Source of the DNA: Streptococcus parasanguinis
GTDB lineage: Bacteria > Bacillota > Bacilli > Lactobacillales > Streptococcaceae
NCBI GenBank assembly: GCA_018379295.1
Contig: JAGZVW010000003.1
Location: 6,111-70,110, forward strand
Reading direction: 5' to 3'
DNA length: 64,000 bases
Part shown: piece by piece, positions 1,737 to 41,956 of the stretch
Layout of the letters: every line of letters starts with the position of its first letter
Numbering within the stretch: position 1 is the stretch's first letter
Translations under genes and position numbers: made by a program
The notes under the pieces: model-generated
Told to the model about the DNA's origin: nothing
The model's database searches: none
Seen by the model: only the letters and a program-made list of their open reading frames with translations

Positions 1737-3218
1737 ATGAAAAATTGGAAAAAATACGCGTTAGCATCTGCTAGTGTCATCGCTCTTGGAGCTACTCTTG
1801 CTGCTTGTGGAAACCTTACAGGGAACAACAAGAAGTCAGCAACAACTGAAGACGGTAAACCAATCATCAAGATGTACCAAATCGGTGATAAACCAGATAA
1901 CTTGGATGTTCTTCTTAAAAACGCCAACAAGATCATTGAAAAGAAAGTTGGCGCAAAATTGGATATTCAATATCTTGGTTGGGGTGACTACGCACAAAAA
2001 ATGAACGTTATCATCTCATCTGGTGAAAACTATGATATTGCCTTTGCTAATAACTACGTGATCAACGCTCAAAAAGGTGCTTATGCTGACTTGACAGAAT
2101 TGTACAAGAAAGAAGGGAAAGACCTTTACAAAGCACTTGACCCAGCTTACATCAAAGGGAACACTGTAAATGGTAAGATCTATGCTGTTCCAGTAGCAGC
2201 TAACGTGGCATCTTCTCAAAACTTTGCCTTCAACGGACCACTTCTTGAAAAATATGGTATCGACGTTTCAAACGTGAAAGACTATGCTTCTCTTGAACCA
2301 GTCTTGAAAGCTATCAAAGAAAAAGATCCAAACGTTGTTCCATTTGCAATGAACAAGAGCTACGGTGGACCTTCAGATGACTTCGACTATGTGGCTGTTG
2401 ATGGACTTCCATTCGTTGTTGACTTGAAAGGTGACACCACTAAGATCGTTGACCGTTACACAATTCCTCGTTATGTAGAAAACTTGAAGACTCTTCACAA
2501 ATACTACGAAGCAGGATACATTCCAAAAGACGTAGCAACGAGCGACACTGGTTATGATCTTTCTCAAGATACATGGTTGGTTCGTGAAGAAACAGTAGGA
2601 CCAGCTGACTACGGTAACAGCTTGCTTTCTCGTGTAGCAAACCGTAAGATCGACATCAAACCATTTACTGAACTGTACAAGAAAAACAACACCACTCAAG
2701 TAGCTAACTTTGTTATCTCAAACAACTCTAAGAACAAAGAAAAAGCTATGGAAGTGTTGAATCTCTTGAATACTAACCCAGAACTCTTAAACGGTCTTGT
2801 TTATGGACCAGAAGGCAAGAACTGGGAAAAAGTTGCCGGCAAAGAAAACCGTGTCAAAGTCTTGGATGGCTACAACGGAAACACTCACATGTCTGGATGG
2901 AACACTGGTAACAACTGGATTCTTTACATCAACGAAAACGTAACTGATGAACAAATTGCACAATCTAAGAAAGATTTGGAAACTGCAAAAGAATCTCCAG
3001 CACTTGGCTTCATCTTTAACACAGATAAAGTGAAATCAGAAATCACTGCTCTTACAAATACTTTGAACCAATTTGCAGGTGCGATCAATACTGGTACTGT
3101 GGATCCTGAAGTAGAAGTTCCTAAGATGCTTGAAAAATTGAAATCAGAAGGTGCTTACCAAAAAGTGCTTGACGAAATGCAAAAACAATACGACGAATTC
3201 CTTGCTTCTAAAAAATAA
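1737..3218 (+). CDS. Extracellular solute-binding lipoprotein (LplA-like, family 1 SBP) of the sugar ABC transporter
   Basis: RBS AAAGGAG; lipobox 'LAACGN'; 493 aa, the typical size for polysaccharide/oligosaccharide SBPs. Confidence 0.8.
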   Translation: MKNWKKYALASASVIALGATLAACGNLTGNNKKSATTEDGKPIIKMYQIGDKPDNLDVLLKNANKIIEKKVGAKLDIQYLGWGDYAQKMNVIISSGENYDIAFANNYVINAQKGAYADLTELYKKEGKDLYKALDPAYIKGNTVNGKIYAVPVAANVASSQNFAFNGPLLEKYGIDVSNVKDYASLEPVLKAIKEKDPNVVPFAMNKSYGGPSDDFDYVAVDGLPFVVDLKGDTTKIVDRYTIPRYVENLKTLHKYYEAGYIPKDVATSDTGYDLSQDTWLVREETVGPADYGNSLLSRVANRKIDIKPFTELYKKNNTTQVANFVISNNSKNKEKAMEVLNLLNTNPELLNGLVYGPEGKNWEKVAGKENRVKVLDGYNGNTHMSGWNTGNNWILYINENVTDEQIAQSKKDLETAKESPALGFIFNTDKVKSEITALTNTLNQFAGAINTGTVDPEVEVPKMLEKLKSEGAYQKVLDEMQKQYDEFLASKK

Positions 3219-3242
3219 GAACAGGTAGTTCGAAAAAGGCTT

Positions 3243-3277
3243 TGGAGGAATCTCCAGAGCCTTTTCATGTCTTTATG
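3243..3277 (+). terminator. Rho-independent terminator after the SBP gene
   Basis: GC-rich hairpin 'aaggctttggagg...ctccagagcctttt' followed by T-run. Confidence 0.5.
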
Positions 3278-3384
3278 AAAATAGAACTGTAAATGAAAAT
3301 CAATATTTCAATTTACCAATGCAAATAAGGGAAAGCGTTTTATTTTTATGGTATAATAGAATCACTAATTGGAAAAGAGGCTGA

Positions 3385-3999
3385 ATGATGGGAAAAATCA
3401 TCGAGTTCATTTTTACGAGAGTCTATGTTGCTATGCTGGTAACAGGGATTTTTTGGGTCTTGACGATCTGTGGGGGTGTTCTACTAGGAGTAGGACCGGC
3501 TAGTGCCACTATCATGAGCCTCTATGCGGAAAATGGCATGACCTACAAGGACTATCATTGGTCACGCGCTTGGGAACTCTTCAAAGAAAATCTACGCCCG
3601 GCCAATCAAGTCTTTTATACCTTCTTTGCCATTGAAGGGGTTCTCCTCTATGGCATGTACCTCATGGTCCAGATTCCTCACTTGAATTTCTTCCAAATTT
3701 TGGTTCTCTTGTTTAATCTGGTTTTCCTCTTGGTTGCGCCTCTAGCTTACGCCGTTTATTTGAAATTGCAAGTTCATTTTGATCTCTCTTATGCCAACAG
3801 TATCAAGCTCAGTTTGATCGGAATGTTGCTGGACATTCGTCCGGTTCTCAAGCTCATCCTTGGAACCGCGCTACTTGGTGTCATTAGCTACTATATGCCA
3901 GCCCTTCTCTTTTTCGTCTTGATCGGTGTATGGCATTTCTTTGTCAATGATATCTTTGACCCTGTTTATCAAAACATCCACGAAAAATTGGTATCCTAA
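3385..3999 (+). CDS. YesL-like integral membrane protein (DUF624 family)
   Basis: 204 aa, 5-6 TM. It sits between the sugar ABC genes and the YesMN-like TCS, as in Bacillus yesLMN. Confidence 0.6.
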   Translation: MMGKIIEFIFTRVYVAMLVTGIFWVLTICGGVLLGVGPASATIMSLYAENGMTYKDYHWSRAWELFKENLRPANQVFYTFFAIEGVLLYGMYLMVQIPHLNFFQILVLLFNLVFLLVAPLAYAVYLKLQVHFDLSYANSIKLSLIGMLLDIRPVLKLILGTALLGVISYYMPALLFFVLIGVWHFFVNDIFDPVYQNIHEKLVS

Positions 4000-4001
4000 C
4001 G

Positions 4002-5648
4002 ATGAAAAAAATCTGGTTAAGTACGCTTTTAAAATTCTACGCCTATGTCATGGTGGTCATTTTGACCATTATGGGCCTGGTTGTTGCGGGGATCTCTTGG
4101 AAAAACCAGCAAGCTGAAGCCGACCGGATCGCCCAACGGGTCTTGACCGAAGTGGTGACGGATCTTGAGACCTCTTATCAGCGGGTCACACAAGAAGGGC
4201 GTAGCCTCGTTGAAAACCCTGCAAAATTAGAAGGAGTTTATCGCTATTTTACCTTGTCACCATCGGAGTATGAGACTTGGCGATTGAATGCCCAATTTCC
4301 TTCGTATATCCAATTGTCCCTACATAAGAATATTGACAGCCTCTATTTGAGCAATAAAAACATCGAGGGTATCGATGTCACCTTGTCTGATTACAAGACG
4401 GTATTTGTCTCTACCCGGCAATCACAGGGAGGCAAGCAAGTCTCAGCGGACCATTACAAGGCTCCTGCGACAGCCATTCCGGTTCCTTTGACAGATCCGA
4501 CTACGGGTGCTGGAGTTGGGATAGCTTATATGACGCTGGACCAAGAAATTTTGACGGCAACGATTGATAATGCCAGAGGCGATCTTCCGATCGCTGTGCG
4601 GATTTTCACTCCCTTTGGGAAAGAGATGTACCATGAAGGGGATAAGGGGCAATCAAAAGATGTTAAATGGCAAACCCGTAGCACGATCTATGGCTACAAG
4701 GTGGATGTAGCTGTTTCTGAAAGTTATCTGGTCAAAAAGGGTCTAGCTAACCTGACCACTTTCCTCTCCATTGCTTTCCTAATTTTCTTGATCCTTTACT
4801 TGTTATTACGGCAGATTTTCAAAAATTACCGGCGTCAAGTCCTCGATTTGGTCGATACCATGAATCAGATCAGTCAAGGCGATAGTGAACGACGGATTGA
4901 TACCTCGACCAAGGATCAAGAACTGCTGGTTATTGGTAATATGATCAATACCATGTTAGACAATATGGATAAGAATATTCGGGATATCTACCAGCTGCAG
5001 CTCAGCCAAAAAGATGCCAATATGCGGGCCCTACAAGCCCAGATCAATCCCCACTTCATGTACAATACACTGGAATTTATCCGGATGTATGCCGTCATGC
5101 AAGAGCAGGATGAATTGGGTGATATTATCTATGAGTTTAGTAGTCTCTTGCGCAATAATATCTCAGACGAGCGAGTGACGACAGTTGAAAATGAGCTCGA
5201 ATTTTGTCGCAAATACAGCTACCTCTGTATGGTGCGTTATCCAAAATCGATTGCCTATGGCTTTAAGATCGATCCAGGCTTGGAAAAGATGAAGATTCCC
5301 AAATTCACCATCCAGCCTTTGGTCGAGAACTATTTTGCGCATGGAGTGGATCATAAACGCAAGGACAATGTGATTAGTGTCAAAGTCTTGCAAGGAGAAG
5401 GGCAAGTCATGATCCTAGTTACTGATAATGGGCGTGGGATGGAAGAAGAACAGCTAGAAAAAATTCAAGAGATACTGGCCAATCGCAATCCACGCTCAGA
5501 AATCGAAGAAAAGAGTGGTCGGCAGTCTATCGGAATTGTCAATGTCCATGAACGCATGCTACTCTATTTTGGAGATCGCTACCATATCCAAGTCTTCTCC
5601 CAACCTCACCATGGAGTGACCTATACGATAACCATTCAAGATGAATAA
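4002..5648 (+). CDS. Sensor histidine kinase, YesM-like (2 TM, extracellular sensor, HAMP, His_kinase, HATPase)
   Basis: 548 aa; 'NPHFMYNTLEFI' His-kinase box; C-terminal 'VTDNGRGM' ATPase motif. Confidence 0.85.
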   Translation: MKKIWLSTLLKFYAYVMVVILTIMGLVVAGISWKNQQAEADRIAQRVLTEVVTDLETSYQRVTQEGRSLVENPAKLEGVYRYFTLSPSEYETWRLNAQFPSYIQLSLHKNIDSLYLSNKNIEGIDVTLSDYKTVFVSTRQSQGGKQVSADHYKAPATAIPVPLTDPTTGAGVGIAYMTLDQEILTATIDNARGDLPIAVRIFTPFGKEMYHEGDKGQSKDVKWQTRSTIYGYKVDVAVSESYLVKKGLANLTTFLSIAFLIFLILYLLLRQIFKNYRRQVLDLVDTMNQISQGDSERRIDTSTKDQELLVIGNMINTMLDNMDKNIRDIYQLQLSQKDANMRALQAQINPHFMYNTLEFIRMYAVMQEQDELGDIIYEFSSLLRNNISDERVTTVENELEFCRKYSYLCMVRYPKSIAYGFKIDPGLEKMKIPKFTIQPLVENYFAHGVDHKRKDNVISVKVLQGEGQVMILVTDNGRGMEEEQLEKIQEILANRNPRSEIEEKSGRQSIGIVNVHERMLLYFGDRYHIQVFSQPHHGVTYTITIQDE

Positions 5649-5658
5649 AGGAGACAGA

Positions 5659-6963
5659 ATGTACAAAGTCTTATTAGTAGACGATGAGTATATGATTACA
5701 GAAGGGTTAAAAAAATTAATCCCCTTTGACCACTGGAATATGGAAGTGGTCGCAACTGCAGAAGATGCAGACCAGGCCCTTGATTATGTGCGAGAGCATC
5801 CGGTGGATGTGGTGATCACGGATGTCAATATGCCTGGAAAGACCGGACTTCAGATGATTGCAGAGATGAAGGATTTGATGCCAGATGCTGCTTTTATCAT
5901 TATGTCAGGCTATCAGGATTTTGAATATGTCAAGACAGCTCTCAATTTGCGCGTGGCAGACTACCTGCTCAAACCTGTCAATAAGGTGGAGATGGGCAAT
6001 ATCCTAGAAAAAATTCAGCACCAAATCCAGCAACCAAGCCAAGAGTTGGCCAACCGCTTGATTCACGATGATATCTCTGAGGAAGAGTTTTGTCGGTATA
6101 TCGCAGGACGAAATTCACTGTGGATTGGGGTTGCTAAGGAGAAAAAAGGCTTTATCAGCTCGTCTTACCAAGTTCTCGGGCAAAATCTTCAACTCTTTAT
6201 CTCAGATCAAGAAGAAGAAGCCATGATTGAGAAGGCCTTCGAGCCACCTTATAAGGAGCACTTTCATCAATTTAAGGACCTAGTGGAGCGGAGTCTCTTT
6301 TATGGAGCGACCCCTCTCAATCAAGATGAGGAAGTCTTTAACTACTACGAGCCGGCCTACCGGGTGATCATGCAAGGAAATATCCAACAGATCTTAGAAG
6401 AACTGGACTGGTTGGAAAAAATGATCCTTGAGAAGACACCTAAGGTTTCGCTGACCAAGCAACTCTTTATCCAATTTTTGATGGATGTCTTTCATTTGTT
6501 TGAATACCTGCAAGGAGATGATTTGGCCGATGTGGTCAAGAAAGTCCATGATGCTGCTACCTTTAGTGAGATGATTAGCTTCATCCAGGAAGAGTTATCC
6601 CGTTTCTTATCCCACTATCGAATGAACGAAAATGTAGCGAGTGTCCTCCAAGTGATTAGCCGTGATTACCAAAAAGAGCTGTCACTCAAGGACATTAGTC
6701 AGGCTCTCTTTATCAATCCAGTCTATTTAGGCCAGTTGATTAAACGAGAAACCAATGCAACGTTCGCAGAACTCCTCAACAAACAGCGGATTAAGGCTGC
6801 CCAGCAGCTCCTCTTATCTACCAATGACAGCATTGAAGATATCTGCTATAAAGTCGGTTACAGCAATGTGGGCTATTTCTATAAGGTTTTCCGTAAACTC
6901 TGTGGAAAATCGCCTAAAACCTATCGCTTACAAGTCATGACAGAGCATGCAGAAGATGAGTAA
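5659..6963 (+). CDS. Response regulator with C-terminal AraC-type HTH (YesN-like)
   Basis: RBS AAGGAGA precedes ATG 5659 (MYKVLLVDDE, receiver domain). C-terminal AraC HTH 'DICYKVGYSNVGYFYKVFRK'. Confidence 0.85.
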   Translation: MYKVLLVDDEYMITEGLKKLIPFDHWNMEVVATAEDADQALDYVREHPVDVVITDVNMPGKTGLQMIAEMKDLMPDAAFIIMSGYQDFEYVKTALNLRVADYLLKPVNKVEMGNILEKIQHQIQQPSQELANRLIHDDISEEEFCRYIAGRNSLWIGVAKEKKGFISSSYQVLGQNLQLFISDQEEEAMIEKAFEPPYKEHFHQFKDLVERSLFYGATPLNQDEEVFNYYEPAYRVIMQGNIQQILEELDWLEKMILEKTPKVSLTKQLFIQFLMDVFHLFEYLQGDDLADVVKKVHDAATFSEMISFIQEELSRFLSHYRMNENVASVLQVISRDYQKELSLKDISQALFINPVYLGQLIKRETNATFAELLNKQRIKAAQQLLLSTNDSIEDICYKVGYSNVGYFYKVFRKLCGKSPKTYRLQVMTEHAEDE

Positions 6964-6996
6964 AAAGGCTGAGACAAATCGTCTCAGCCTTTTTAA
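6926..6996. repeat. Direct repeat copy 1 (~69 bp): 3' end of the yesN-like CDS plus its terminator
   Basis: Near-identical to 8326-8396. The only difference is one extra T in copy 2. Confidence 0.85.
6964..6996. terminator. Bidirectional rho-independent terminator (copy 1)
   Basis: 'aaaaaggctgagacaaatcgtctcagccttttt': 9-bp perfect stem flanked by A-run and T-run. Confidence 0.75.
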
Positions 6997-7093
6997 TTGA
7001 AGATAAAGTCTTCTTAGAAACTTTCCTTAGGTGAGTAGATAACAGAAGGTCAGAGACTCTGAAGCTAAGTTTTGAGTATTTTTTAATTTGACA
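6997..7093. repeat. BOX-like intergenic repeat element
   Basis: 'gaagataaagtcttcttagaaactttccttaggtgagta...' is shared with 39981-40020 and partly with 41850-41870. Internal IR gaagaNaaagtcttc. Confidence 0.6.
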
Positions 7094-7162
7094 AATATAA
7101 GTAGACAGTGTATACTTTATAAAAAGTAGACGGCGTATACTTTGATAGGGAAAGGTGGTCAA

Positions 7163-7756
7163 ATGAAACGGAATACGGAAGAACTGAAAGAAAAGTTAAT
7201 TTCGGTCGGCATTGAAGAAATTAGAACTAACGGGATTGACCGGATGTCTATGCGTACAATAGCTCAAAAATGTGGGGTGACTCATGGAGCTCCCTATAAG
7301 CATTTTGGAAGTAAAGATAGATATATTCAAGTGGTTATGGAACACTTATCAATGTTCTTTTTGACAAATATGATACAAGGGATTGATACTTCCATAGATG
7401 CAAGAACTCAACTAATTCTGATGGGCTGTAACTTTGTAAGGTTTGCCCAAGAGGAAACCTATCTATTTGAAGCATTATTTATCAAATTTCCATATAACTA
7501 TTTGGAGCTATCCCAGGAAACTATTTCAGTCAACTCCTCTTTACCAGGATTTGAACATTTTAAGTCGGTAGCGTTAAGACTTAAAGATGAGGAAAATCTT
7601 TCTAGTAGTGACGCAGAAATTTTGATCCATTTTTGGAGTTTTATTGCTGGTTTGGCTCTATTGGTAAGGAGTCCCGTTGGAGAAAGCTTTAAAGAAAATG
7701 ATGTTCAAAAGACCGTCAGAACGATGCTTGATATTTATATAAAAGGAGATAGCTGA
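7163..7756 (+). CDS. TetR/AcrR-family transcriptional regulator
   Basis: RBS GAAAGGTGG precedes ATG 7163. N-terminal HTH 'MSMRTIAQKCGVTHGAPYKHFGSKD'. ~197 aa. Confidence 0.8.
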   Translation: MKRNTEELKEKLISVGIEEIRTNGIDRMSMRTIAQKCGVTHGAPYKHFGSKDRYIQVVMEHLSMFFLTNMIQGIDTSIDARTQLILMGCNFVRFAQEETYLFEALFIKFPYNYLELSQETISVNSSLPGFEHFKSVALRLKDEENLSSSDAEILIHFWSFIAGLALLVRSPVGESFKENDVQKTVRTMLDIYIKGDS

Positions 7757-8319
7757 TGAATGTTTTAATAATCTATTCACATCCGAATGAAACAAGTTAT
7801 AATGCATCAATCCTTCAAACTGTGCAAAAGCATTTAGCACCAGAGCATAGGGTTAAAATAGTAGACTTATATAAAGAAAACTTTGATCCGGTTTTACGTT
7901 TTGATGAAAGGCATAAAAGGAGAGATTTACAGCATAATGAAGACATGAAACCGTATAGAGATTTATTGAGTTGGGCGGATCAGTTGATTTTTATTTTCCC
8001 TACTTGGTGGAGTGGAATGCCAGCTATTTTAAAAGGTTTTATTGATCGTGTTTTTGTTGCAGGTTTTGCTTATCAGAATGGACCTCGAGGTCCGGTGGGG
8101 CAACTAGATGGAAAAGCATGGATCATTACGACGCATAATACGCCAAAAATTTTTCTTCCTTTTTCTCAAGACTACGCAAAGGTTCTAAAATCCCAAATCT
8201 TGAAACCCTGTGGTATTAAACCGGTTAAAGTGACACAAGTTACACGAGTGGAATATATGAGTGATCGTCAACGGAAAGAAGAACTCGAAAAAATCGCACA
8301 AATAGCAAAAAGGATTTAA
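7756..8319 (+). CDS. Flavodoxin-like fold NAD(P)H dehydrogenase (quinone) family protein
   Basis: ATGA overlap with the tetR stop. 'MNVLIIYSHPN...FPTWWSGMPAILKGFIDRV' is the Flavodoxin_2/NQO signature. Confidence 0.75.
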   Translation: MNVLIIYSHPNETSYNASILQTVQKHLAPEHRVKIVDLYKENFDPVLRFDERHKRRDLQHNEDMKPYRDLLSWADQLIFIFPTWWSGMPAILKGFIDRVFVAGFAYQNGPRGPVGQLDGKAWIITTHNTPKIFLPFSQDYAKVLKSQILKPCGIKPVKVTQVTRVEYMSDRQRKEELEKIAQIAKRI

Positions 8320-8325
8320 AAAGTG

Positions 8326-8396
8326 CTTTACAAGTCATGACAGAGCATGCAGAAGATGAGTAAAAAGGCTGAGACAAATCGTCTCAGCCTTTTTAC
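8326..8396. repeat. Direct repeat copy 2 (~69 bp), including a second copy of the bidirectional terminator (8364-8396)
   Basis: Duplicates 6926-6996. It contains an orphan 36-nt fragment encoding '...LQVMTEHAEDE*' of the yesN-like C-terminus. Confidence 0.85.
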
Positions 8397-8397
8397 T

Positions 8398-9252
8398 TTA
8401 AGTCCTTTGTATCTTGATTTTCCCAACTAGCAGCTCCGCTTCAACGGTGATTTCTGTGAGTTGATTCCAGTCGATTTTTTCTTGGTCAACGTGAAATAGA
8501 AGGGGGGTCATGGCGAGGAGCGCCTGGCGTTCTTCAGGAGTTAAACTCTTGGTGAGGCTGACCGTTTCGGATGAGAGGATCTGGCAGTGGTCTTCAAAGT
8601 GCTCCAAAATCTCCTGGTTGGAGTAGGATTGCTTGGTCAATTGATCTTGGGCCAACTGACGAATTTCTTTCAGATGAGAAGAGGTTGGGACAACCTTAAT
8701 GATCACCCCTTCATCCTTTAAGACACGCTCAAATTCAGCATAATTAGCCGGGGAGAAGATGTCCAAAATGACCTCCATACTCTTGGATTGAATGGGTAAA
8801 TGAGCCAAGTCTCCGACAAACCAATTGACCTTCCAGCTAGTGTTACTCTTGGCAGCTAGTTGCACAGATTCCTTGGAAAGATCAAAGGCATAGAAAGTAG
8901 CTTCGGGATAGGCTTCTTGTAGTTTTCGGGAGTAATAACCTTCTCCGCAACCGATATCTAGAATTCTGGCATCACTGGTCGGAATTTTTTGTCCGATCGC
9001 TGTTAGAATCGGCTCATAAAAACCTGCTTCTAGGATTAGCTGGCGATTCTGGAAATTTTCTTTGTCATAGTCCTTTGATTGTTTGATCTGGGGAGCCAGG
9101 TTGACATAGCCAAATTTCGCCAAGTCAAAAGAATGGCCCTTGGGACATTTAAAACTGGTCTCCACAAGTTCTAGGTCCAGTTGACAGATGGGACAGGCAA
9201 AAGCAGTGGCTGTTTGAAATCGTTGTAATTTTGGTTTAATCGGTGTATTCAT
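8398..9252 (-). CDS. rlmA: 23S rRNA (guanine-N1)-methyltransferase RlmA family (RlmAII/TlrB-like)
   Basis: N-terminal Zn finger 'CPICQ...CPKGH'; SAM motif 'LDIGCGEGYYS'; 284 aa. Confidence 0.8.
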   Translation of the reverse strand: MNTPIKPKLQRFQTATAFACPICQLDLELVETSFKCPKGHSFDLAKFGYVNLAPQIKQSKDYDKENFQNRQLILEAGFYEPILTAIGQKIPTSDARILDIGCGEGYYSRKLQEAYPEATFYAFDLSKESVQLAAKSNTSWKVNWFVGDLAHLPIQSKSMEVILDIFSPANYAEFERVLKDEGVIIKVVPTSSHLKEIRQLAQDQLTKQSYSNQEILEHFEDHCQILSSETVSLTKSLTPEERQALLAMTPLLFHVDQEKIDWNQLTEITVEAELLVGKIKIQRT

Positions 9253-9521
9253 ATTAGTAGTGTAACAAAAGAGCCTCTAGATAGCAACCGATGCTCTAAT
9301 AGAGTACCAAACAGAATATGAGCTGATAGAAAAAGGCAATTCATTGATGCCGATTTTAAAGGACTTGAATCAATGGGGAAAAGAATGGCTGCAATAAATT
9401 TTTTCCTCATTTTAATCTCTTCTATCTCGCCACTCATCTCTTCATTTTGACCACTTATCCCCAAAAGCCATTTTTTAAGCGGCTTTTTTGTTAGACTGGT
9501 TCTATCAAAAGGAGAGAGAAC

Positions 9522-10388
9522 ATGATATTACAAGCTAAAAACATCAGTAAACGATATGGAAATCATTTAGCCGTAAACAATATTCACTTACAGTTTGAAA
9601 AGGGAACGTTTAATGCGATTCTAGGACCAAATGGGGCGGGGAAATCAACGACGATTTCTATGTTGATCGGTTTGAAACAACCAACGCAAGGCGAGATCAT
9701 CTATGAACCCGGTACTAAAATTGGTGTGGTCTTCCAAACCAGTGTTTTAGATGAGATGCTGACGGTTAGGGAAAATCTGACCATTCGTGCCAGACAGTAC
9801 AAAGGCCTAAAACCAAATCGTGTGTCTGATCTTATTGATCGACTAGGCCTATCAGCTTTCCAAAAGCAGAAATATGGGACGCTTTCAGGCGGCCAAAAGC
9901 GTCGGGTTGACATTGCGCGTGCTCTACTGCACGGTCCAGATCTTCTGTTCTTAGATGAGCCAACGACAGGTTTAGACATTCAAACCCGGAAGTCTATTTG
10001 GGATTTGCTCTATCAATTGCAGAGAGAAGAGGGGATGACCGTTGTATTGACCACGCATTATCTTGACGAAGCAGATGAAGCTGATCAAATTTATATTGTA
10101 GATCATGGGAAAGTGATTGCTCAAGGATCGGCACTAGATATTAAGAGCCAGTATGCTACTAATATCTTAAAGATTCGTTTCAAGGAGAGACAGCAGATAG
10201 AAAGTCTCAAATCTTCGGGAATGTCAGTAGAGCAACAAAGTCAATTGGAGTATGTTCTTCAACCCGATAGTGAAAGGGAAGCCATTGATTACCTGGCGCA
10301 AGTTAGAGATAAAATAGCCCATTTTGAGTTTCGTCCAGGGACTATGGATGATGCCTTTATTGCACTTACAGGAAGGGAGGTTCGCTAA
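9522..10388 (+). CDS. ABC transporter ATP-binding protein
   Basis: Walker A 'GPNGAGKST', signature 'LSGGQKRR', Walker B 'LLFLDEPT'. Confidence 0.9.
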   Translation: MILQAKNISKRYGNHLAVNNIHLQFEKGTFNAILGPNGAGKSTTISMLIGLKQPTQGEIIYEPGTKIGVVFQTSVLDEMLTVRENLTIRARQYKGLKPNRVSDLIDRLGLSAFQKQKYGTLSGGQKRRVDIARALLHGPDLLFLDEPTTGLDIQTRKSIWDLLYQLQREEGMTVVLTTHYLDEADEADQIYIVDHGKVIAQGSALDIKSQYATNILKIRFKERQQIESLKSSGMSVEQQSQLEYVLQPDSEREAIDYLAQVRDKIAHFEFRPGTMDDAFIALTGREVR

Positions 10389-16144: not shown

Positions 16145-16195
16145 AGTGATAACTAATTTGTCGTGTGCTTTATTTGAAATATTGTCCAAATAAGA

Positions 16196-16247
16196 GCTTA
16201 CAGCAGTTAAATCTTACTTGAATAAGTCGATTTAGCTGCTCTTTTTG
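16196..16247 (+). terminator. Hairpin plus T-run. It is either the pbp1b terminator or an attenuator/sRNA 3' end.
   Basis: 'cagcagttaaatc-N15-gatttagctgctcttttt'. Confidence 0.55.
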
Positions 16248-39925: not shown

Positions 39926-39965
39926 TCTCTCTTCTTTGCATCATAAAAAAACAATCCCTGCTCTA

Positions 39966-40215
39966 GGAATTGTTGAGATTGAAGACAAAGTCTTCTTAAA
40001 AAACTTTCCTTAGGTGAGTACGGACGTCAGCGAACTTCTATGAAGTTCCATGACTAATTATTGAGCCTAAGGTCTCAATAATTCCGAGTGCCTGAAACTG
40101 AGTCGTTTCAGGCACTTTTCTCACGGCGGAAAGTTTCATTAGATGACTGAATAACTATAACGAGTATAATTTTTAAAGAATTGATTGGATTTTATAAAAG
40201 ATTCGTTTCTCTACG
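39966..40215. repeat. Composite BOX element (~250 bp) inserted in the folK terminator
   Basis: Its 5' module is shared with 6997-7040. It contains 'acgtcagcg' (boxA-like) and several internal hairpins. It is flanked by halves of a split terminator stem ('acaatccct'). Confidence 0.65.
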
Positions 40216-40250
40216 CTCTCAACAATCCCTCGAGCAGGGATTGTTTTTGT
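40216..40250 (+). terminator. Terminator of the fol operon (intact copy, downstream of the BOX insertion)
   Basis: 'acaatccctcgagcagggattgtttttgtttg': perfect 9-bp stem plus T-run. Confidence 0.75.
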
Positions 40251-41825: not shown

Positions 41826-41956
41826 CATATTATATCAGAAAACAGATGGAAGATAAAATATTCTAAGATACTTTCCTAAGGGGAGTGTGGATGCCGAGGG
41901 GCTCAATGGTGACTCACGCTGGAAAGTTTCAAAGAGAACCTTGTTTTCCCCCTAAA
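41826..41956. repeat. BOX-like repeat element
   Basis: 'ctaagatactttcctaagg' and 'ggaaagtttc' modules are shared with the 7.0-kb and 40.0-kb elements. Confidence 0.5.

Follow-up and report, generated by a model that had tools for sequence, protein, structure and literature searches.

Introduction

Does a long and perfect direct repeat around an accessory operon tell when, and by which route, the operon arrived? The question is raised by a stretch of 64,000 nucleotides from Streptococcus parasanguinis (assembly GCA_018379295.1, contig JAGZVW010000003.1, positions 6,111 to 70,110), hereafter called the window, to which all coordinates refer unless another locus is named by its handle (L001, etc.). 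Here, genes for a TetR-family repressor and an NAD(P)H:quinone oxidoreductase (NQO) are inserted between a yesN-like gene for an AraC-type response regulator and a convergent rlmA-like gene for a 23S rRNA methyltransferase, and they are bracketed by two identical copies of a 68-nt sequence (6928-6995 and 8328-8395, start-to-start spacing 1400). A first-pass annotation of the window took this arrangement for a recent mobile event. The comparisons described below suggest that the tetR-NQO cassette is an old presence/absence polymorphism of single origin and not a freshly moved element. We lean towards the view that the accessory operon was inserted once, by an illegitimate event not involving a transposase, and that homologous recombination has since maintained, exchanged and removed it.

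An Old Polymorphism with a Probable Single Origin

The repeat consists of the final 12 codons and the stop codon of the yesN-like gene, followed by a perfect hairpin. The number of exact 68-nt repeats expected by chance in 64 kb, ~(6.4e4)^2/2 x 4^-68, is effectively zero. The match stretches to 75 nt once two mismatches are allowed and, at the 5' side, the preceding GC matches as well if the right copy is given one extra T. The first-pass annotation had placed the repeat at 6926-6996 and 8326-8396 with one extra T in the second copy, and had described it as the last 12 codons of the regulator gene plus a hairpin terminator. The repeat is real, its exact core is 68 nt, the extra T was confirmed, and open reading frame (ORF), Pfam and folding analyses agree on its content. 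The hairpins were left unflagged by a consensus terminator scan, as the T-run is part of the stem, and were assessed by folding in its place; the free energy (dG) was -23 to -28 kcal/mol with z-scores of -6.7 to -10.4 on either strand, which no shuffled sequence equalled.

A YesN protein scan of one genome per GTDB species yielded 49 loci, all from the S. parasanguinis complex. The cassette is present in 23 of them, and in one more it is cut by a contig end. The site is clean and empty in 18 of the 49, where the order is yesN-terminator-rlmA, as had been postulated for the ancestral arrangement. Five others contain only a dispersed repeat, designated X, and/or a second small repeat, designated Y, and the remaining two are truncated. 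Y, which has inverted ends (CTGCGGAT…ATCCGCAG), adjoins the rlmA stop codon in L039, L059, L023, L029 and L062. Its terminal sequence TCAAGATACAAAGG is the reverse complement of the last codons of rlmA, and in L062 Y stands between two copies of a 12-nt piece from the end of rlmA.

In all of the ~45 carrier loci inspected, the right junction reads TAA, then AAAGTGCT or a close variant, then TTACAAG, and the left junction consists of the hairpin followed by a fragment of X. Since every carrier has the same junctions, a single origin is argued. In public assemblies, the exact TetR protein is indexed in 1475 blocks and the exact NQO in 5677. The 20 places listed for these exact proteins (10 for TetR) all have the order yesN-tetR-NQO-rlmA at one and the same locus.

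The two repeat copies are unequal in most carriers, differing at 0-8 per 64 positions among 15 distinct haplotypes. Typically, G is exchanged with A, the stem is preceded by one A fewer, the loop is reverse-complemented (GATTT vs. AAATC) or the T-run has changed. A perfect 68-nt repeat was found only in the window and in its near-twin L006, which differs from it by 10 single-nucleotide polymorphisms (SNPs) and 2 gaps over 12.6 kb. The perfect identity in the window is probably secondary, a product of later recombination and no sign of recency. The recent event proposed in the first-pass annotation is not supported by this comparison: about half of the relatives share identical junctions and their copies have mostly diverged, which is largely the situation that had been named there as speaking for an ancient event.

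Loop inversion is a recurrent polymorphism. Frequently, the loop of a terminator in one allele or one duplicated copy is the reverse complement of that in another (GATTT/AAATC; GGAT/ATCC), as at 6976-6980 and 8376-8380 and also in L042, in L009 and at 39946-40250 of the window.

The age of the cassette is further bounded by its diversity. In a set of 17 carrier sequences (the window and 16 species-level relatives), third-codon diversity is 0.020 in tetR and 0.029 in NQO vs. 0.094-0.103 in the histidine kinase, yesN, rlmA and ABC transporter genes. Because these values are 4-5 times below those of the flanks, the cassette is younger than the diversity of the core alleles and has moved between diverged backgrounds, although it is by no means new. 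In the divergent relative L060, the orphan yesN relic in the right repeat copy is of the mainstream type whilst its own yesN end is different, which indicates that the relic travels with the cassette.

Origin of the Foreign Core

The foreign core measures 1.29 kb (7038-8327) and comprises the promoter, two putative TetR operators and the two genes. Its left joint is formed by the first 42 nt of the X repeat, and its right joint by the second copy of the last 36 nt of yesN with the terminator. The GC content is 34-38% in the insert vs. 42-47% in the flanks. Taken together with the low third-codon diversity and the presence of a homolog at another locus, this marks the segment as foreign, in agreement with what had been suggested before.

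The homologous operon occurs in other streptococci in a chromosomal rnpA-yidC-jag-tetR-NQO-rpmH context. The closest TetR proteins outside the complex are 74-75% identical to that of the cassette, and nothing was found between 75% and 91%. DNA homology to the jag-rpmH operon (~75%) is confined to 7087-8313, i.e., the promoter, both operators and the two genes. The jag-rpmH operon is the nearest homologous operon found and not the direct donor. Whether it is flanked by a target duplication of its own was also considered and rejected; the one repeat seen around it is 12 nt long and does not stand out among the 12-mers that recur by chance in that region. A search of plasmids gave remote partial matches to NQO only, and a search of phages gave none, so that the expectation of finding the same cassette elsewhere was not borne out at a second locus, on a plasmid or in a phage.

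The Joints and the Proposed Insertion

The segment directly behind the left repeat copy had been called a BOX element. An Rfam scan of the cassette region returned sub-threshold noise only and no family match, and, in a test without a full BOX hidden Markov model (HMM), the BOXA1R motif was found nowhere in the window even when 3 mismatches were allowed. BOX, RUP and SPRITE repeats are reported to occur hardly anywhere but in pneumococcus, S. mitis and S. suis (PMC3049150). The BOX identity of 6996-7140 was rejected, as there is no Rfam match and no BOXA1R motif, and the region matches another family: the first 42 nt (6996-7037) are the left end of X. In the cassette-free loci L039 and L059, an element of 240-300 nt comes after the yesN terminator, and its start agrees with the fragment at 42/42 positions. 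With an X HMM built in this analysis from 55 metagenome copies, nhmmer matched 6997-7075 to model positions 2-86 (E = 5e-9), whilst the fragment alone stays under the gathering score of Rfam family RF02616. An extension of X beyond 42 nt to ~7075, as the full-length alignment would have it, was considered and rejected, since 7038-7086 alone gives no nhmmer match. The fragment is not a complete element, which would have both ends and the core TCTCACGGCGGAAAGTTTC; neither the right end nor the core of X was found in 7038-8420, and nhmmer finds nothing in 8200-8420.

A full X stands behind the right repeat copy in two of the 23 carriers and in three relatives altogether, L027 and L016 among them; there, the direct repeat measures 108 nt (36 nt of yesN, 30 nt of hairpin and 42 nt of X). 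The duplication could have come about as follows. The left joint lies inside X, and X abuts the hairpin in the canonical way; therefore, the recipient chromosome most likely already had an X behind the yesN terminator. The left joint falls within a repeat common to X-bearing relatives, and at the right joint a GC(T)T microhomology may be present, although no donor context turned up with which to compare it. The left end of the foreign fragment would have been joined at X position 42 and its right end ~108 nt upstream, at the GC(T)T microhomology within yesN. As the left end would thus have been joined downstream of the joint of the right end, the interval between the joints would have been duplicated, possibly by a template switch or through a staggered break at a fork stalled by the hairpin. 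On this view, the 108-nt forms, which retain X, would come nearest to what the first event produced. The duplication would have kept yesN intact and would have supplied the new operon with a terminator of its own.

Could a recombinase have been responsible? Neither a transposase nor an integrase or relaxase gene is present in the gene tables of the carrier loci L001-L020. The yesN-rlmA interval never exceeds ~1.8 kb in the 49 relatives, which leaves no room for a recombinase gene between the two in other relatives. Transposition and att-site integration are rated low because no recombinase or transposase gene was found and the cassette was never seen elsewhere. The cassette does not resemble an insertion sequence (IS) or a composite transposon: its only ORFs are those for TetR and NQO, it has one TIR (terminal inverted repeat)-like end, the duplication is 68-108 nt, and the cassette is at a single locus in all places sampled. 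It is most improbable that the two copies are the attL and attR sites of a decayed site-specific element, i.e., a CIME (cis-mobilizable element)-like remnant of an integrative and conjugative element (ICE) or integrative mobilizable element (IME) that was aimed at the yesN 3' end and lost its recombinase module. Site-specific integration of ICEs, IMEs and CIMEs at the 3' ends of genes yields direct repeats that duplicate the gene end, and the direct repeats here do restore the 3' end of yesN, i.e., its last 12 codons; the low GC content of the insert would fit as well. However, apart from the lack of an integrase or relaxase gene in the tables of the 20 carrier loci, no larger parent element is found at the site in the 49 relatives, the repeat length is either 68 or 108 nt depending on the flanking X, the left junction lies inside an X repeat that resembles a MITE (miniature inverted-repeat transposable element) and not in an att core, and the core is a bare operon with a chromosomal homolog elsewhere. 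The insertion that the first-pass annotation had envisaged is right in outline, but the event seems to be old, of single origin and unrelated to BOX-associated mobility.

Exchange and Probable Loss after Insertion

Comparison of the carriers shows that the cassette has spread over diverged lineages through flank-mediated recombination. After insertion, the left copy would evolve together with the yesN alleles and the right copy with the rlmA alleles, with occasional homogenisation, and recombination between the copies would remove exactly one unit. Private variants common to both copies were found in L047, L067 and L027, and the left and right copies differ by 3.8 positions within their own genome vs. 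4.6 across genomes (permutation p = 0.03). These data point to an occasional exchange between the copies.

The window itself is a mosaic. Relative to the empty-site loci L021 and L022, it has 8 SNPs over 1932-9600 and 3-5% differences outside that block, and within the block, where the haplotypes are otherwise 99.9% identical, the sole structural difference is one exact 1400-bp unit, i.e., one repeat plus the cassette. This difference shows that recombination took place across the repeats in recent times. Relative to the carriers L025 and L034, 6990-8430 has 0 mismatches, whilst their flanks are ~3% different, including 6 sites in their left repeat copy. Both comparisons together indicate that a cassette of the L025 type sits in a haplotype of the L021 type, with breakpoints at the repeat boundaries. 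That recombination in the flanks simply brought the cassette of an L025-like donor into a recipient of the L021 kind was rejected, as 0/6 of the donor's left-copy differences are present in the window. On the simplest reading, the lineage of the window obtained its identical copies by homogenisation or allele replacement, and L021 and L022 represent a precise deletion between the copies.

The same observations may be viewed as homology-mediated capture, the second of the two routes offered in the first-pass annotation. A circular or tandem intermediate carrying one repeat copy and the cassette would enter and leave through one crossover of the Campbell type within the 68-nt segment, and the identical copies in the window would stem from a recent re-integration into an L021-like empty site. 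The window is indeed the L021/L022 haplotype plus exactly one unit, its cassette and right copy are identical to those of L025/L034, and the mosaic breakpoints are located at the repeat boundaries; moreover, the same reaction would yield 68 nt where the site is empty and 108 nt where it contains X. Yet, the first duplication cannot be created in this way, none of the contigs showed a tandem or circular junction, and natural transformation brings in linear single strands. The private SNPs in both copies of L047 and L067 would not be expected from a Campbell crossover with a foreign circle either, and precise deletion between 68-nt repeats explains the pair of the window and L021/L022 more simply. 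Altogether, capture is considered quite unlikely. With respect to the recombination in a naturally transformable host that the first-pass annotation had offered, this is the best-fitting part of that reading; it suits the later spread and loss of the cassette but is not demonstrably the source of the first duplication.

Several points weigh against a single illegitimate insertion followed by homologous exchange and loss. The difference between the window and L021/L022 may stem from a loss or from a re-gain. The mosaic breakpoints lie within 6 nt of the left repeat boundary (6990-6995), which needs two events or an unsampled donor. The donor context of the core was not found, so that microhomologies at the joints are putative, and the template-switch or staggered-break step is conjectural. 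Either the 108-nt (X-retaining) form or the 68-nt form may be ancestral. Finally, X elements generate terminator duplications themselves, and the terminator part of the repeat might stem from the X machinery.

X as a Terminator-Associated Element

X deserves attention beyond its role at this locus. A metagenome scan for the exact 19-nt X core gave at least 120 stretches (L077-L196), and X copies are abundant in streptococcal metagenome contigs. At no fewer than 18 distinct sites, 17-37 nt (median 27) directly left of X recur just right of it, far over the null from mismatched pairs, and the duplicated sequence is the locus-specific rho-independent terminator hairpin (e.g., in L142, L185, L157, L087, L112 and L078). 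A second presence/absence site for X is the intergenic SBP/DUF624 region, which is empty in the window (3219-3384) and was compared with L042, L036, L003, L004, L009 and others. The filled alleles of L042 and L036 have the local hairpin on both sides, other filled alleles have lost the right hairpin copy, and empty alleles have one hairpin. X has TIR-like ends (AGATTGAAGACAAAG…/…TTTGTCTACATTCT), which are all that miniature derivatives retain, and the consensus structure of RF02616 pairs both ends. An autonomous IS partner with matching inverted repeats was found neither in the window nor in the 120 metagenome loci listed, where only miniature derivatives were seen.

A full copy of X is present in the window at 39952-40241 (- strand), where it passes Rfam RF02616 SSRC8_2 ('Streptococcus sRNA 8') with 82.5 bits. 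It is bracketed by local terminator hairpins at 39946-39975 and 40222-40250, the loops of which are reverse-complementary. Inverted instead of direct duplication of the hairpin was considered and rejected: the loops are colinear in the best-preserved X sites, so that loops in flipped orientation are regarded as later changes. A short and diverged fragment resembling X is located between two minus-strand genes at 41849-41935 (nhmmer, E = 8e-4). X elements also seem to be hot spots for nested insertions of small repeats; Y is nested in X copies at L095, L129, L096 and L092, and a ~170-nt structured repeat (…GGGACAGAAATCGGTAATTCG…CTAGGACTTTTGTCCCAGCCTC) is nested in X copies at L084 (4560-4400) and L128 (4740-4900).

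In its genomic contexts, X seems to behave as a MITE would if terminators were its targets and the hairpin was doubled on insertion. One may speculate further, although with considerable doubt, that X in oral streptococci is a non-autonomous mobile element that inserts 3' of rho-independent hairpins and duplicates the whole hairpin (17-37 nt), that the tetR-NQO cassette is a rare cargo by-product of this activity, and that the 68-108-nt duplication and loop inversion are its signatures. In a limited search of the literature, no description of hairpin-duplicating elements was found, which is not proof of novelty. If true, such structure-targeted insertion would give small elements a route of their own to the ends of genes that leaves termination undisturbed, and it would explain convergent intergenic regions such as that between yesN and rlmA as insertion hot spots. 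The behaviour of the X family is a more interesting lead than the cassette itself.

Did X-family (SSRC8-like, MITE-type) machinery then install the cassette, in an aberrant, one-ended event? In that case, the canonical X left end would have been joined 3' of the hairpin and a non-X pseudo-end (…AAAGTGCT) 36 nt upstream of the hairpin base, and the usual duplication of the whole hairpin (median 27 nt) would have become 68 nt. The left junction (hairpin, A/G, ATTGAAGA…) is indeed canonical, as at the 18 or more independent X sites; the filled and empty alleles at 3219-3384 show that the hairpin is single before insertion, and the pairing of the element's two ends in the RF02616 structure is in line with this possibility. 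There is also a precedent in TnSha1/IS1272, a hairpin-targeting IS that moves a metabolic gene with a degenerate second end (PMC4923244). In contrast, the cassette has no X right end detectable by nhmmer in 8200-8420, just 42 nt of X are securely present, the 68-nt duplication falls outside the 17-37-nt range of X duplications, the cassette occupies a single locus among the places listed, and no autonomous partner with matching inverted repeats turned up in the window or the 120 metagenome loci listed. The extra 36 nt of yesN, the lack of a right end and the single locus argue against a canonical X event for the cassette, and its installation by X machinery is considered unlikely.

The tetR-NQO Operon and Its Neighbours

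The features of the locus are listed in Table 1. The first-pass calls of the TetR and NAD(P)H-quinone oxidoreductase genes are supported by their Pfam domains. The combination of an N-terminal TetR helix-turn-helix (HTH) domain with palindromes over the promoter is what is seen in autoregulated operons of the TetR family, and the same palindromes occur upstream of the homologous operon in L072-L074. TetR would repress the operon via these two putative operators until a quinone-like ligand releases the repressor. The second gene starts in overlap with the tetR stop codon (TGATG), and the two genes are translationally coupled. NQO matches the 'NADPH quinone oxidoreductase' of PDB entries 3LCM/4F8Y over its full length (residues 1-186, E = 8e-77), whilst its score for NCBIfam PRK09739 is below the family cut-off. 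Membership of the fold together with close similarity to a characterised enzyme makes it a probable NAD(P)H:quinone oxidoreductase.

Table 1. Coordinates of features in the yesN-rlmA region of the window.
Feature	Position	Strand	Remarks
yesN-like AraC-type response regulator, intact	5641..6963	+	Pfam Response_reg 1.8e-24, HTH_18 3.8e-20; last 36 nt are part of left repeat copy
Left copy of 68-nt direct repeat (yesN last 12 codons and stop, terminator)	6928..6995	+	Identical to 8328-8395
Bidirectional terminator hairpin, left copy	6961..6995	.	Perfect stem of 15 bp with loop AAATC; dG on either strand -23 kcal/mol
X', 42-nt left-end fragment of the SSRC8/RF02616-family dispersed repeat X	6996..7037	+	Abuts hairpin exactly as full copies do
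Leader of foreign core	7038..7087	+	Not homologous to the jag-rpmH operon copy; blastn homology to L070-L076 begins at 7087
Sigma-70-type promoter of tetR-NQO operon, TTGACA-17 nt-TATACT	7088..7116	+	11/12 match; conserved in homologous operon
Two tandem 19/20-nt imperfect palindromes (AAGTAGAC-N3-GTATACTT), putative TetR operators	7099..7143	+	At 7099-7117 and 7124-7142; first overlaps -10 element
TetR-family repressor, 197 aa	7163..7756	+	Pfam TetR_N 2.8e-9
NAD(P)H:quinone oxidoreductase, Flavodoxin_2 fold, 187 aa	7756..8319	+	Pfam Flavodoxin_2 (PF02525) 3.6e-38; FMN_red
8-nt right junction AAAGTGCT between NQO stop and right repeat copy	8320..8327	+	Same or close variant in every cassette-bearing locus
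Right copy of 68-nt direct repeat (orphan 12-codon yesN relic and terminator)	8328..8395	+	Identical to 6928-6995
Bidirectional terminator hairpin, right copy	8359..8397	.	Inverted repeat; dG -28.4 (+ strand), -27.3 (- strand)
rlmA-like 23S rRNA methyltransferase, convergent with yesN	8398..9252	-	Zn_ribbon_RlmA 3.3e-14; NCBIfam PRK11088 9e-53, under curated cut-off

The rlmA-like product combines an RlmA zinc ribbon with a methyltransferase domain. The right hairpin, a predicted terminator, would end the tetR-NQO transcript on the + strand and that of rlmA on the - strand. Between rlmA and the ABC transporter gene lies an orphan 31-codon C-terminal fragment of an HxlR-type regulator (9302-9397; EYQTEYELIEKGNSLMPILKDLNQWGKEWLQ*). 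Because the relative L018 has full-length YCII and HxlR genes at this position, the fragment is taken to be a deletion relic and a further indel polymorphism beside the cassette. Elsewhere in the window, a Lacto-rpoB RNA motif (RF01709) was found at 16156-16214 with 70.3 bits, over the gathering score.

Comparison with Known Systems

As a system, the locus is an ordinary accessory operon whose flanking duplication is unusually long. What can be learned from it is that the time of insertion of an accessory operon cannot be read from a long and perfect direct repeat on its two sides: the same architecture is common to half a species complex, and recombination keeps the copies alike or makes them so. 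Owing to the repeats, the cassette is reversible as a character, the near-isogenic empty site documenting its apparent precise loss, and this matters for the reading of gene gain and loss in the pan-genomes of transformable streptococci.

A functional counterpart is the NADPH:quinone oxidoreductase of S. mutans (PDB 3LCM/4F8Y), which has a TetR regulator adjacent to it and to which the 187-aa enzyme of the cassette is similar over its full length. TetR homologs with 52-55% identity to that of the cassette are present in S. mutans, S. sanguinis and others. In contrast to the S. mutans system, the operon in the S. parasanguinis complex is accessory and located at a different locus, and its enzyme activity and ligand are predicted.

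As to the architecture, the locus shares with ICEs, IMEs and CIMEs the direct repeats that copy a gene 3' end and flank a low-GC insert, with an intact target gene. It differs from them in that no recombinase or larger parent element was found at the site and in that the length of the repeat is tied to a MITE-like neighbour. The pneumococcal BOX, RUP and SPRITE elements, which are small, structured, AT-rich intergenic repeats enriched between convergent genes (PMC3049150), are of the same sort as the X fragment at 6996-7037. However, X belongs to another, RF02616-like sequence family, and it is bracketed by duplicated local terminator hairpins, a feature not described for those elements.

TnSha1/IS1272, of the IS1182 family in staphylococci, the nearest analogue in print, targets terminator hairpins without primary-sequence specificity; TnSha1 carries a single metabolic gene, sh-fabI, between one good IS end and a degenerate pseudo-end, whilst IS1272 has its own transposase gene, removes part of the hairpin and leaves the target unduplicated (PMC4923244, PMC5678879). 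Unlike these elements, the cassette has no transposase, the duplication of its hairpin takes in 36 nt of the coding sequence upstream as well, and it resides at one locus only.

There is also a likeness to illegitimate or homology-facilitated insertion and repeat-mediated deletion in naturally transformable streptococci, in which foreign DNA is placed beside homologous DNA, a duplication arises by alternative pairing, and spread or loss follows later. Such events are reportedly mostly insertions with deletions, or very large merodiploid duplications. In comparison with them, a 68-108-nt duplication around a 1.3-kb insert is a non-standard outcome.

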